Source of the DNA: Xylographa opegraphella
Lineage: Eukaryota
Assembly: GCA_022813865.1 (NCBI GenBank)
Contig: JALDZX010000049.1
Coordinates: 124,001-156,900, forward strand
Reading direction: 5' to 3'
Length of the DNA stretch: 32,900 nucleotides
Positions 1 through 32,900 of the stretch are shown here, one piece after another. A program made the translations under genes and the position numbers. The notes under the pieces were generated by a model, which saw only the letters and a program-made list of their open reading frames with translations, did no database searches and was not told the DNA's origin. Every line of letters begins with the position of its first letter. Within the stretch, counting starts at the first letter, position 1.

Positions 1-1776
1 CTGGCACCAGTGGCTTTCTTGCAGGTGCTGGAGGAACAGCGCTGATCACTACGGGTGCTGTATTATCGGGTGGTACTGTAGCTGTCAGGGCATCGAATCG
101 AAGGATGGGTGCGGTCAAGACTTTTGAGTATCGCCCGTTGCACAACAACAAAAGAGTGAATCTCATTGTCACCGTCTCTGGATGGATGAATGGCAAGGTA
201 GACGATGTGCGATTGCCGTTCAGTACAGTAGACCCCATCATGGGCGATATGTACTCGTTACTATGGGAGCCAGACATGCTACAGAGTATGGGGGATACGA
301 TCAGGATCCTGGCGACTGAGGTATACTCCATCCCCATTCATTGCGTCACACCAGGCTCATGTTGCTCCAGGCTCTTACCCAAGGCTTACAACAGGTTCTT
401 GCTAGCACGATACTGACAGCCTTGATGGCATCTTTGACACTGCCTATTGTCCTAACAAAGCTTTCTTACCTGATTGATAATCCTTGGGCTGTTTCTCTTG
501 ACCGAGCAGATGCCGCAGGCCTGATTCTAGCTGATTCGTTAGTTGACCGGAATCTGGGAGTTCGTCCAATCACGCTCGTGGGGTTTTCTATTGGATCTCG
601 AGTCATATTCTCGTGCTTGCGTGAGCTGGCAAACAAGGGTGCATATGGGCTGGTGCAGAATGTGTATCTTTTCGGATCACCCATAATAGCCAAGAAGGAG
701 GATTACATACGAGCAAGGACGGTTGTCTCAGGCAGGTTTGTCAATGGGTTTGCATCGAATGACTGGATTTTGGGTATTTTACTGTCTTATATGTAGATAC
801 TATTCGACATCAGCGCTGACATTTCTCAGGCTATTTATTTAGGGCCACAAGCGGTGGTATCTCTCGTATTGCTGGTCTTGCTTCAGTGGAAGGTATTCCA
901 GGTGTCGAGAACTTCAACCTCACAGAATTCGTCAATGGCCATATGGCCTACCGTGCTGCGATCCCTCGTCTGTTGCGCGAAGTAGGCTGGGAAGTCGAAA
1001 GTGACGAATTCACAGAAATCGAGGATCCAGATCCAGATAACCACGGCGCTCGCCAGCGTGAACTCATTAAAGAAATCGAAGGTGCCCGGAAAGAGGCCGA
1101 AGCTAAGCCAGAGAAACGTAGGTTTGGGATCTTCAAACGTGGAAAACTTGCCGAGAAGAAGATCTGGGAGACATACGATGAGAAATCGAAACAAGATTCC
1201 GGAGCATCTGATGATCATGATGAGAAACGGCGCGACAGCCGCGTCCTATTCGATATCGACGCCATCCGTGCGGAGCTCGAAAGTGAGCATATGGAAGTAC
1301 GGCAGCTGGAATCTACGTTACCACCTATGAGGCTGGATCTCAATGGCTCCAGAGCTGCAACGGACAAGATCCCTCAAGCCCCATTCAGTACATTACGCGC
1401 AACGAAAAGCTATGACGGGACGGCGCTATCGGCTCACCAGCCAGTGGACAACGAAACATCTGATCTCAGCCATGAGGATGGCGTGCCGCAACACACCTTC
1501 GTGAATACTCCCGACTCCCCCAATACTTCACTGCAACCCGATTCTCAAGTCACGATGTCTTTTGAACCACAATCACCCCTTCCCTCCGCCGTTCTCGCAT
1601 GGCAGAGCCAATCGTTGGCAAGCCCTGACCACCCGGTCACGCCGCAGAGGCCGGAGCTCAGATCATCAGCCACCATGCCAGCGACCAGTAATGGGGCGCA
1701 TCTCACACACAATGCGTGGGCGGATGAGGATGAGGAGTTTGGGCAAGAGAAGGAGATACATATGAGTTTTGAGTAG
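1..1776 (+). CDS. DUF726 / TMCO4 (yeast Mil1-like) membrane-associated alpha/beta-hydrolase-like protein, 5'-truncated by the window edge
   Basis: Exons <1-320, 371-773, 830-1776; introns 321-370 and 774-829 are GT-AG and splice in frame (…LATE|ALTQ…, …DWILG|YLFRAT…). Contains IDNPW, a G-x-S-x-G motif (VGFSIGSRV), NDWILGYLFR and VNGHMAY, which I recognise as typical of DUF726. Confidence 0.85.
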
Positions 1777-31707: not shown

Positions 31708-32869
31708 ATGCCCCTCCTCCTCCTCCTCCTCCGCCGCCGCCCACCACCCCGTCTCCACACTCTCATCCGCACCGCGCCCCCTCTCCGCTTCTCCACCACC
31801 AGCAGCCCTCCCCCGCCGCCCTCCCCCTCCCGATGGCTGTCCGCCATCAAGCAACGCGTAGGGCAATGCATCATGTTCGGGCTGCACGGAAAACAGATCG
31901 CGGACGCGGCCGCGATAGCGCGCGTGCTGGGCACGGAATGGAGGGGCTTCGTCGCTGGGCGGGAGGGCTTTTTGCTGGATAAGGGGCTGGAGGGGAGGGT
32001 GCGCTGGGGGGAGATGGTATGTGCATGGCTGGTGGGAGTGGGGGAGCGGTGGCTTGTGCGTGAGATGCTGATGCGCTGCTGGGTGATTGTTTAGGATGTT
32101 ATGGTAAGAGAACCTTCGTCCCAGGTGTATGGTTCTCGTCTTGCGTCGCTGATGCTGATGCTGTATTTAGGGTATGTATGTTCCTCACCCTCTACGGAGG
32201 TACCCACCGGTCTTGCTTCCACCCTGGCTTCAACTGCCTACCACACATCGCTGACCCCGCTCCCTCCCTTCCGCCCGCAGGCCACCTGAACAACGCCGCC
32301 TACGTCCGCCTCGCCGAGTCATCCCGCGTGCACTTCTTCCGCGCCATCGCCCCCCCGGGCTCCTCCGCCGAGCACATCCGCCAATGGCAAGACACATGCA
32401 CGCCGCAAGGCCTAGGCCTAATCCTGCGGACCATCGCCATCGACTACAAATACGTAAGCCCCCCCCACCCCCCCTTCTCCCCCCTCCACCACGCACACTA
32501 ACCCCTCCCCCCTTTTTTTTCCAGCCTCTCACATTTCCCAACCACTACACCATCCACCACCGCCTCTCCTCCCTTCCCTCCCCCTCCCCCTCCACCCCAA
32601 CAATCATCCACCTCACCTCCCTCCTCCTCTCCACCCCCGCCCAGCGGCCCGCCGCCCGCTTCCAAGAGGAGATCGTCATCTTCGACTACCGCGCCCAGAA
32701 GCCCGCTCAGCTGCCGGCGCATATGCTACATGCGCTGCATGCGCGCTGGGAGGCGCAGGAGCGCGTGGGTGCGTATTGGCGCGCGCGGGTGGCGGGTGTG
32801 GAAGAGAGGGTGGGGGTGCTGGAGGGAGGGAGTTGGGGGAGGGAGGGGGCAGTGGAGGATCGGGGTTGA
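31708..32869 (+). CDS. Mitochondrial-type hot-dog-fold thioesterase (4HBT-like)
   Basis: Exons 31708-32016, 32095-32103, 32171 (1 nt), 32281-32453, 32525-32869. Spliced protein reads VRWGEM|DVM|G|HLNNAAYVRLAESSR…GLILRTIAIDYKY|PLTFPN…IVIFDYR, with an Arg/Leu-rich presequence-like N-terminus. Confidence 0.85.
32171..32171 (+). other. Predicted one-nucleotide exon (G)
   Basis: Sequence is …CTGTATTTAG|G|GTATGT…: an acceptor with upstream GCTGAT branch-like motifs, one G, then a consensus donor. It is needed to restore the reading frame. Confidence 0.7.
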
Positions 32870-32900
32870 GGCGGTGTCGAGTAGGAAGGGGGGGGGGGGG

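Follow-up and report, generated by a model that had tools for sequence, protein, structure and literature searches.

A predicted single-nucleotide exon beside a 9-nt micro-exon in a thioesterase gene from Xylographa opegraphella, a lichen-forming ascomycete

Introduction

Within a 32.9-kb stretch of Xylographa opegraphella DNA (hereafter, the window), ten coding bases from the middle of a conserved protein motif appear scattered across 264 nt, as a 9-nt exon and a 1-nt exon among three introns. This raises the question of whether a single nucleotide, a G at position 32171, can be a genuine exon. An exon of one base represents the lower limit of what the spliceosome can retain, and very few have been documented. 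In Arabidopsis thaliana APC11, a single base (A333) was demonstrated to be an exon through cDNA sequencing together with substitution and deletion constructs (Guo and Liu 2015, PMC4674806), while the one-nucleotide exon of the Fusarium CYP621A P450 genes, presented by its authors as the second known case and the first from a fungus, is spanned by SRA reads in two species and was found in 20 orthologues (Nelson and Syed 2026, PMC12940212). A long-read annotation of Coprinopsis cinerea lists one-nt exons (13, in as many genes) alongside 57 two-nt exons, and states that leaving out such ultra-short exons creates premature stops (PMC12230235). One-base exons have therefore already been reported in Arabidopsis, Fusarium, and Coprinopsis, and the present exon adds to them. 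It would contribute a case from a lichen-forming ascomycete that is apparently conserved between diverged species, adjoins a second ultra-short exon, and forms part of a putatively catalytic motif.

Here we argue that the locus most likely harbors a real 1-nt exon beside a 9-nt micro-exon, that this exon is probably constitutive, and that its junctions can be predicted from 1) the splice signals, 2) the existence of a unique in-frame solution, 3) the presence of the same layout in another organism, and 4) the occurrence of the expected protein in intronless ORFs of a relative.

Results

Layout of the locus

The locus is a putative nuclear gene of X. opegraphella, a lichen-forming ascomycete, and its predicted product is a 278-residue 4HBT_2 (hotdog-fold) thioesterase. 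The features of the gene model are as follows:

31708..32016, + strand: exon 1 (103 codons), from the translation; presequence-like N-terminus, ending ...V-R-W-G-E-M (GAGATG)
32017..32094, + strand: intron 1, 78 nt, phase 0; GTATGT donor, GCTGAT branch motif at 32067, TTTAG acceptor
32095..32103, + strand: 9-nt micro-exon GATGTTATG (D-V-M), which holds the Asp of D-x-x-G-H-x-N-N
32104..32170, + strand: intron 2, 67 nt, phase 0; GTAAGA donor, GCTGAT at 32148 and 32154, TTTAG acceptor
32171..32171, + strand: single-nucleotide exon G, first base of the Gly codon G|GC, with AG before and GT after
32172..32280, + strand: intron 3, 109 nt, phase 1; GTATGT donor, GCTGAC branch motif at 32250, GCAG acceptor
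32281..32453, + strand: exon 4 (GC plus 57 codons), starting GCCACCTGAAC; H-L-N-N-A-A-Y...I-D-Y-K-Y, core of the hotdog-fold thioesterase domain
32454..32524, + strand: intron 4, 71 nt; GTAAGC donor, CACTAAC branch motif (identified by eye), CCAG acceptor
32525..32869, + strand: exon 5 (114 codons plus the TGA stop at 32867-32869), from the translation; conserved C-terminus G-A-V-E-D-x-G shared with orthologues

Re-reading the sequence recovered exactly the three introns, the GATGTTATG exon, and the lone G at 32171 that a sequence-only reading of the window had proposed. Introns 2 and 3 are each complete, having their own donor, branch motif, and acceptor, and their lengths of 67 and 109 nt may be compared with the 71 nt of intron 4. 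When the five exons are joined by their coordinates, the product is 837 nt or 278 codons with zero internal stops, and it is only after the three-intron splice that D-x-x-G-H-x-N-N arises in this gene.

The remainder of the model can be anchored to a close relative represented by two uninterrupted ORFs, P0171 (225 aa, from a 907-nt Logan contig) and P0175 (278 aa, from a 1195-nt JGI contig), both of which read G-E-M-D-I-M-G-H-L-N-N and are regarded here as transcript-like due to their absence of introns. Exon 1 can be aligned along its full length to P0175, and the intron-4 join D-Y-K-Y|P-L-T-F-P is uninterrupted in both P0175 and P0171. The position of intron 1 is shared more broadly, as ten ORF fragments from other fungi continue from W-G-E-M into V-[C/S/R], which corresponds to a donor at the same place.

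Both predicted failures of the junction that had been proposed from the sequence were recomputed and do end in stops: omission of the lone G yields D-V-M-A-T-stop (a stop after 5 codons), and retention of intron 3 yields a stop after 30 codons. Skipping the 9-nt exon alone keeps the frame and gives G-E-M-G-H-L-N-N.

Uniqueness of the splice solution

All combinations of one to three GT/GC-AG introns, each at least 40 nt long, were enumerated within 32005-32300. Among the 6454 combinations, 1421 are in frame without a stop, 7 of these have the length of the orthologues, and a single one gives the family motif (W-G-x-x-D-x-x-G-H-x-N-N). This sole motif-giving combination is the three-intron model with the lone G, which also has the best consensus sites. 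Single-intron solutions were considered over the slightly wider interval 31960-32330 (256 candidates, 54 of them in frame), and the motif occurs in none of the junction peptides among the matches listed.

The arrangement of the sites was also considered as a pattern in its own right. YAG-G-GTRWGT has one match on both strands of the whole window, at 32168-32177, where 0.42 would be expected and where at least one match was found in 33 of 100 shuffles; by our own arithmetic, the chance of finding it on the right strand of the 177-nt gap is approximately 0.001.

The predicted protein

The predicted product is identical to P0175 at 168 of 278 positions (60%), the two being of equal length. Across 27 orthologues, the 12-residue segment W-G-[ED]-x-D-x-x-[GASNR]-H-x-N-N is free of gaps, and via P0175 the solved thioesterases 2fuj_A and 3qy3_A likewise align without a gap over the motif. 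Judging from its sequence, the product belongs to the 4HBT_2 thioesterase-like superfamily (PF13279). Exon 4 alone scores 26.6 bits against this Pfam profile, or 30.4 bits with 2 extra residues (cut-off 25.5), and exon 5 alone scores 22.3 bits, below the cut-off, over profile positions 58-122 (E 1.9e-4). In P0175 the 4HBT_2 match starts at the motif, residues 96-230 corresponding to profile positions 1-120 with 80 bits, and the orthologue P0167 reaches 101 bits. By analogy with 4HBT/YbgC enzymes, we take the motif Asp, which is encoded by the micro-exon, to be catalytic.

Orthologous loci and gene models

A scan of genome contigs with the close-relative alignment A3 produced 34 pattern matches, none of them from a relative, and a metagenome scan with the same alignment retrieved one orthologous locus, L001. 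This contig is clearly diverged from the window: over the final 62 codons of exon 1, 64 of 186 sites differ, of which 15, 16, and 33 are first, second, and third codon positions, respectively (an excess at third positions), and the introns cannot be aligned. Its sequence reads GAGATG|GTACGT..TGTAG|GATGTTATG|GTGAGC..GCTGCTGAC..TATGCAG|G|GTA, at which point the contig ends. Intron 1 of L001 (864-969, GTACGT..CTGAC..TGTAG) lies at the same position as that of the window, the micro-exon (970-978) is identical to the window's in 9 of 9 bases, and intron 2 (979-1039, GTGAGC..GCTGCTGAC..TATGCAG) is 61 nt long. It is followed by CAG-G-GTA at 1037-1043, such that the counterpart of intron 3 is visible for the three bases GTA. 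The comparison with an orthologous locus that the sequence-only reading had in view thus turned up a 9-nt micro-exon and then a lone G between AG and GTA. In this one orthologous DNA locus, and up to the GTA, the lone-G layout is apparently kept in a diverged organism despite introns that have become unalignable. In conjunction with P0171/P0175 and the unique splice solution, L001 also supports the earlier proposal that a true 1-nt exon and a 9-nt micro-exon build D-x-M-G-H-x-N-N.

Additional indications come from shorter ORFs. P0049, whose first 51 residues are identical to those of the relative behind P0171/P0175, reads G-E-M-D-I-M and then continues with V-R-T-N into an intron; the genomic side of this relative is known through this short ORF only. 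The ENA ORF P0020, from a third organism, runs in a single frame from intron 1 through exon 4 and contains S-G-C-H-G-E-R, L-G-Y-V, and Y-L-G-H. When the peptides are read back into DNA, allowing for degenerate codons, they are consistent with AG|GATGCCATG|GTGAG, TAG|G|GTATGT, and TTAG|GC CAC, which would imply introns of 72 and 86 nt. In other lineages, exon-1-type and exon-4-type ORF fragments were compared by the length of their contigs in search of loci combining a phase-0 donor with a phase-1 acceptor, and the 10 fragments examined yielded no pair.

It had also been anticipated that gene predictors would mis-model the junction, and this is amply confirmed by the Xylographa gene models, 6 of 6 of which (opegraphella, soralifera, trunciseda, carneopallida, pallens, and bjoerkii) are aberrant at this junction, each in a different manner. 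The NCBI model of X. opegraphella, P0003, begins at an internal Met of exon 1 (M-F-G-L-H-G-K) and carries 41 spurious residues from read-through of introns. The peptides of X. soralifera (..A-G-C-H|G-H-L-N-N) and X. trunciseda (..L-G-Y-H|G-H-L-N-N) would be explained if the predictor took the micro-exon out of frame and then omitted the lone G, as judged by back-reading of peptides with degenerate codons.

Discussion

The present locus offers a concrete example of annotation failure, in that all six public Xylographa models of one gene are wrong at one junction. Whether the three-intron model is the correct replacement depends upon how it compares with other explanations for the same DNA. It is quite unlikely, in our estimation, that introns 2 and 3 are instead one 177-nt intron (32104-32280) removed by a non-canonical cleavage shifted by one base, either after ATGG (a TA donor) or between the A and the G of the terminal CAG (a CA acceptor). 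Such a cleavage would yield an mRNA and protein identical to those of the three-intron model, and it is accommodated by the fact that the acceptor base 32280 and base 32104 are both G. However, U2-type introns almost always use GT/GC-AG, as is well established and also noted in PMC5587772, and a donor moved by one base would read TA in the window versus TG in L001, whereas it is ATG|GT that is conserved. Furthermore, an intron of 177 nt would exceed the 61-109 nt of the other introns at the locus, and it would leave unexplained why the "intron" of both the window and L001 should contain a branch site followed by YAG, a G, and GTA(TGT). We consider it very unlikely that P0003 or another in-frame variant, such as one retaining most of intron 3 or one skipping the 9-nt exon, represents the real product. 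P0003 is free of stops and, by our reconstruction, its donor at 32128 and acceptor at 32170 are GT-AG sites, and the form skipping the 9-nt exon alone stays in frame and could coexist as an isoform. However, P0003 places its 41 extra residues inside a motif that shows no gap across 27 orthologues or in solved structures, and it relies on a weak donor (GTATGG) for an intron of 43 nt. The transcript-like ORFs of the relative have D-I-M-G-H with no insertion, and the form skipping the micro-exon would be left without the motif Asp.

An extremely unlikely explanation is that the gene is a frameshifted pseudogene, or that a base is missing from the assembly, with the three-intron solution arising by coincidence. 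The frame does break without the lone G, and as GC-rich DNA leaves many frames open, 1421 of the 6454 combinations enumerated above are stop-free. However, L001, an independent assembly from a different organism, is likewise one base short and shows an identical AG-G-GTA arrangement, and the X. soralifera and X. trunciseda models, as well as P0020, imply this shortfall too. The same ATG|GT count in L001 also renders very unlikely the specific assembly error envisaged beforehand, an extra G at 32103-32104. Furthermore, the five exons are intact, their product is equal in length and 60% identical to the intronless ORF of a relative, and the differences between exon 1 and L001 are concentrated at third codon positions, all of which argues against a pseudogene.

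For the three-intron model, we infer that such splicing takes place in X. opegraphella itself, that inclusion of the exon is constitutive, and that the mechanism is sequential. The three introns would be ordinary short U2-type introns processed by plain intron definition, in which a donor is joined to the first branch site and acceptor that follow it. During removal of intron 2, the "3' exon" would consist of the G plus intron 3, and during removal of intron 3, the "5' exon" would consist of the tail of intron 2 plus the G. Only one base separates the intron-2 acceptor from the intron-3 donor. The two sites are unlikely to be occupied simultaneously, and therefore the two introns are likely removed successively. 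Either order of removal should result in the same mRNA, since neither excision creates or destroys a signal of the other. Joining the intron-2 donor to the intron-3 acceptor would skip the G and place a stop five codons later; the frame switch towards NMD suggested in the sequence-only reading is a hypothetical role. An RNA structure that brings the splice sites together was considered and rejected, as the fold of 32005-32295 has a z of -0.06 and 84 of 200 shuffles fold equally well or better. A 22-nt inverted repeat with 77% complementarity is present in the folded region.

The sequence-only reading had further claimed an ordered splicing related to that of stwintrons, which is the part of its interpretation that did not hold. 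As defined by Fekete et al. (2017, PMC5587772), a stwintron has an internal intron that interrupts the donor, branch point, or acceptor of an external intron, such that the order of splicing is forced; in the [D1,2]/[A2,3] type, two alternative internal introns overlap by one G, and each of them interrupts a splice signal of an external intron. By comparison, the X. opegraphella introns are complete, with one exonic G between them and nothing interrupted, and the signals are intact both before and after removal of the other intron (ATG|GTAAGA and TTTAG|G for intron 2; G|GTATGT and GCAG|GC for intron 3), such that no order is forced. There are parallels with the [D1,2]/[A2,3] stwintrons described in that report, as these also involve two successive U2 introns in Pezizomycotina, two intron-definition reactions, a decisive single G at the joint, and related species having single introns 1 nt apart (PMC5587772). 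The likeness of the mechanism is limited to two adjacent introns that both need to be removed by intron definition. Our literature searches found nothing combining "stwintron" with "thioesterase".

A second point of comparison is recursive splicing at zero-length exons, in which AG|GT ratchet points, such as those of Drosophila Ubx, leave no base behind. The present case is similar in that an acceptor nearly touches a donor and a long stretch is removed in two steps. Unlike recursive splicing, one coding base stays in the mRNA here.

The closest precedents are the known one-base exons. As with APC11, a single exonic base lies between AG and GT within an annotated single intron, is essential for the frame, and is handled incorrectly in the public annotation (PMC4674806). 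APC11 is a plant gene with an A as the lone base and an upstream intron of 333 nt (PMC4674806), whereas the X. opegraphella case is from a fungus, has a G between introns of 67 and 109 nt, has a 9-nt micro-exon directly upstream, and draws upon comparative evidence only. Resemblance to Fusarium CYP621A is greater in some respects: both are found in Pezizomycotina, both place the lone base within the Gly codon of a conserved motif in an AG..GT context, both were argued from an orthologue alignment and an over-long "intron", and both were missed by predictors (PMC12940212). The lone base is at the center of its codon in CYP621A versus the first base here, and the gene families differ; in addition, the CYP621A exon is backed by reads (PMC12940212), whereas the X. 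opegraphella exon has a neighboring 9-nt exon and is predicted here from genome comparison. The Coprinopsis cinerea data provide a genome-wide long-read count from a basidiomycete (PMC12230235), as opposed to a single locus of a lichen-forming ascomycete with apparent conservation across species. Judging by their search entries, the three papers that mention X. opegraphella do not deal with genes of this species.

When the junction is examined in other fungi, the two introns flanking the lone G appear to occupy positions 1 nt apart that are otherwise used singly. At the peptide level, a phase-0 donor directly after D-x-[MF] is indicated by eleven ORF fragments and two models, while models of Aspergillus fumigatus read D-S-M-G-M-S, i.e. 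ATGG|GTATGT, in phase 1. Since the phase-0 donor after D-x-M is widespread, an origin of the lone exon by gain of an intron 1 nt from an older one is plausible. Intron 2 was also compared with intron 1 as a possible source by duplication, but the two have in common only the 11-nt exact repeat GATGCTGATGC, which overlaps the branch motif and is too short to be telling. For A. fumigatus itself, the conflict among gene models suggests that something comparable may occur at the corresponding glycine codon. An intronless Logan ORF, P0167 (502 contigs), reads D-S-M-G-H-V-N-N; taken together with it, the three rival A. fumigatus models are irreconcilable by any one canonical GT-AG intron, and by our decoding these models leave the transcript one G short. 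In Stachybotrys elegans (P0046) and Cladobotryum mycophilum (P0024), the gene models are likewise unusual at this place.

It is conceivable, albeit rather doubtful at present, that the Met-Gly-His junction is a long-lived hot spot for neighboring-phase introns in Pezizomycotina. In this case, Xylographa, by keeping two introns with the lone G between them, could represent a live intermediate of a one-nucleotide shift that involves no stwintron, and exons of 1-2 nt might be found at the same Gly codon in distant fungi. If so, the locus would provide a natural system for the one-base sliding of intron positions, and the A. fumigatus orthologue (XP_751554.1 in Af293), a gene with abundant RNA-seq, would be worth re-annotating.

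Gene structure at the thioesterase motif

Direct reading of the sequence places three introns, a 9-nt micro-exon and a lone G exactly at the coordinates that an earlier sequence-only reading had assigned to them, within a 4HBT_2 thioesterase-type gene (31708-32869, +) organized as follows.

Predicted features of the gene (window coordinates)
31708-32016, +, exon 1, ending ...V-R-W-G-E-M by translation
32017-32094, +, intron 1, 78 nt, GTATGT...GCTGAT...TTTAG
32095-32103, +, micro-exon GATGTTATG, between introns 1 and 2
32104-32170, +, intron 2, 67 nt, GTAAGA...GCTGAT twice...TTTAG
32171, +, lone G, between introns 2 and 3
32172-32280, +, intron 3, 109 nt, GTATGT...GCTGAC...GCAG
32281 onward, +, exon 4, GC, then H-L-N-N-A-A-Y...
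32454-32524, +, intron 4, the fourth intron of the gene

Exon 5 follows intron 4 and completes the gene. When joined by script from these coordinates, the five exons yield 837 nt, or 278 codons with no internal stop, and a profile search matches exons 4 and 5 to Pfam PF13279, the 4HBT_2 thioesterase-like superfamily. The first 55 codons (31708-31872, from ATG 31708) are open and lie upstream of the start of P0003, the deposited NCBI model of this gene; the peptide they encode can be aligned to the N-terminal part of the orthologue P0175 (F-S-T-S...P-S-R-W-L-S..K.R.G.C-I-M-F-G-L) and looks like an organelle-targeting presequence. Introns 1 and 2 share an exact 11-nt repeat, GATGCTGATGC (32064-32074 and 32151-32161), which overlaps both branch motifs and is too short to prove a shared origin. 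A run of 13 G (32888-32900) ends the window, 19 nt past the stop codon of the gene.

G32171 is likely a real exon, as the sequence-only reading had proposed, and three lines of evidence support this: the uniqueness of the splicing model that yields the motif, the layout of an orthologous contig and the product encoded by a close relative. All sets of one to three GT/GC-AG introns, each at least 40 nt, were enumerated in 32005-32300, giving 6454 combinations. An open frame alone is little proof, since the DNA is GC-rich and many frames stay open; 1421 combinations are both in frame and stop-free. Seven match the orthologue length, and exactly one (1/6454) generates W-G-x-x-D-x-x-[GASN]-H-[LVI]-N-N. 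This is the model proposed originally, whose splice sites are moreover the closest to consensus. The string YAG-G-GTRWGT has a single match in the entire window, counting both strands, at 32168-32177 (expected 0.42 per window). It had also been predicted that skipping the lone G or retaining intron 3 would lead to a stop, and these stops are found after five and 30 codons, respectively. Skipping the micro-exon alone (donor 32017 to acceptor 32170, joined to 32171) remains in frame as G-E-M-G-H-L-N-N, without the Asp of the motif, and thus an inactive isoform would be possible in principle.

Searched without a profile, 1.84 billion representatives yielded 340 relatives at E <=0.001. Of 169 proteins collected, 27 have the gap-free 12-residue motif. 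Of 19 aligned sequences, two are Xylographa models (P0003 and P0004); the remaining 17 have no insertion between D-x-x and G-H. The solved thioesterases 2fuj_A and 3qy3_A align without gaps over V-R-W-x-D-M-D-x-x-G-H-V-N-N, and the Pfam 4HBT_2 match of P0175 starts at the motif.

Conservation of the arrangement in relatives

A metagenome scan found one locus, L001, a 1043-nt contig from a diverged relative and the single orthologous DNA locus read. Over the last 62 codons of exon 1 (186 sites), 64 differences separate it from the window (15, 16 and 33 at codon positions 1, 2 and 3), and 38 of 62 residues are shared; its introns could not be aligned with those of the window.

Features of L001 (contig coordinates)
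before 864, end of exon 1, GAGATG
864-969, intron, GTACGT...CTGAC...TGTAG
970-978, micro-exon GATGTTATG, nine bases identical to the window
979-1039, intron, GTGAGC...GCTGCTGAC...TATGCAG
1040, lone G
1041-1043, GTA, where the contig ends 3 nt past the lone G

Up to the contig end, the exon-intron layout is equal in both. The comparison shows a putative branch site, acceptor, single G and donor start held in place while the neighbouring intron sequence drifted. An assembly error at the joint of the micro-exon and intron 2 is very unlikely, because the window and L001, which are separate assemblies, have the same ATG/GT count.

In P0020, an ENA ORF of another relative, a single frame runs from intron 1 into exon 4 and contains the stretches S-G-C-H-G-E-R, L-G-Y-V and Y-L-G-H. 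By codon back-reading, these would be expected from AG/GATGCCATG/GTGAG in a shifted frame (at this place the window ORF has L-G-C-Y-G-K-R), TAG/G/GTATGT and TTAG/GC CAC, respectively, and the implied introns would measure 72 and 86 nt. Two ORFs of a close relative, P0171 (225 aa, 907-nt Logan contig) and P0175 (278 aa, 1195-nt JGI contig), fall in one 90% cluster; both are unbroken and contain G-E-M-D-I-M-G-H-L-N-N, and both cross the intron-4 position unbroken as well. P0049, a short ORF on another contig, equals P0171 over the first 51 residues, and its G-E-M-D-I-M continues as V-R-T-N into an intron. On these grounds, P0171 and P0175 are taken to be transcript-derived, in which case the expected mRNA product would be present in this relative. 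The predicted spliced product of the window and P0175 have equal length and share 168 of their 278 residues.

Probable splicing of the lone G

As all three introns are complete, ordinary intron definition, the mode argued for in Pezizomycotina by stwintron work (PMC5587772), would presumably be enough, with each donor using the first branch site and acceptor that lie downstream of it. Introns 2 and 3 are probably excised one after the other, because the intron-2 acceptor and intron-3 donor are 1 base apart and could hardly be bound simultaneously. Excising one intron should neither create nor remove a signal of the other, the sole changes being TAGG/GT to ATGG/GT at the intron-3 donor and AG/GGTA to AG/GGCC at the intron-2 acceptor, so either order would work. 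If the donor of intron 2 were instead paired with the acceptor of intron 3, a premature stop would result, and this product could enter nonsense-mediated decay. No special RNA structure favouring the arrangement was found in the fold of 32005-32295 (z = -0.06).

The sequence-only reading had further suggested ordered, stwintron-related splicing. This is not supported: no splice signal is interrupted by an intron, and lacking that defining interruption, the arrangement is not a stwintron. In the [D1,2]/[A2,3] stwintron, as described in PMC5587772, two introns overlap by one G, whereas here one exonic G lies between them. The candidate instead joins one-base exons already documented in Arabidopsis APC11, proven through mutagenesis (PMC4674806), in Fusarium CYP621A, where the evidence comprises 20 orthologues together with SRA reads and the authors name theirs the second known case and first in fungi (PMC12940212), and in Coprinopsis cinerea, whose long-read annotation reports 13 (PMC12230235).

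ORF fragments from many fungi leave the exon at two points. In 10 fragments this happens past W-G-E-M, at the intron-1 position; in 11 fragments and 2 annotated models it happens past D-x-[MF], corresponding to a phase-0 donor at the intron-2 position. Aspergillus fumigatus models show D-S-M-G-M-S, which, read back from the peptide, would be ATGG/GTATGT and put a donor of phase 1 at the position of intron 3. The introns flanking the lone G in Xylographa therefore seem to occupy positions, 1 nt apart, that other fungi use singly. For the A. fumigatus orthologue (P0005, P0156, P0166, P0167), three rival models of the junction exist: D-S-M-V-R-H, D-S-M-G-M-S-V-L-P-I-Y-G-H and a 131-aa truncation. 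A Logan ORF without introns, present on 502 contigs, reads D-S-M-G-H-V-N-N. By our own decoding from the peptides, the two full models would set the donor at phase 1 and the acceptor at phase 2, and with one canonical intron a G would then be missing; as a lead, this orthologue may contain a 1-nt exon as well. The ORFs P0086 (Fusarium sp.) and P0115 (Logan/ENA), which enter exon 4 from upstream, have R-V-C 17-18 residues ahead of G-H-V-N; as a weak hint, this peptide could come from AG-G-GTATGT, with an intron of 46-49 nt after it.

Misannotation of the junction

Gene predictors had been expected to mis-model this junction, and they have done so in all six annotated Xylographa species. With exon 1 as the query, a single longer protein was matched, the 100% identical P0003 (hypothetical protein, Xylographa opegraphella), which begins at an internal Met (M-F-G-L-H-G-K) and at the junction has 41 intron-derived residues between D-V-M and G-H-L-N-N.

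Junction in the deposited Xylographa models
X. opegraphella, X. soralifera, X. carneopallida: insertions
X. trunciseda: truncated
X. pallens: E-M-D-x-M-G deleted
X. bjoerkii: exon 4 skipped

The spurious parts end A-G-C-H/G-H in X. soralifera and L-G-Y-H/G-H in X. trunciseda. Codon back-reading suggests that these peptides fit a predictor that translated the micro-exon (D-A-M and D-I-M, respectively) in the wrong frame and next joined the base following ATG to GC CAC, leaving out the lone G. One frame is open for 145 codons (32064-32501): starting in intron 1, it crosses the micro-exon, intron 2, the lone G and intron 3 and enters exon 4, which explains how predictors and ORF callers can pass over the junction without a break. 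In P0024 (Cladobotryum mycophilum), P0046 (Stachybotrys elegans) and P0044 and P0071 (Fusarium spp.), the annotated models also have short spurious insertions placed precisely between D-x-M and H-V-N-N, and the junction is therefore mis-modelled well beyond the Lecanoromycetes.
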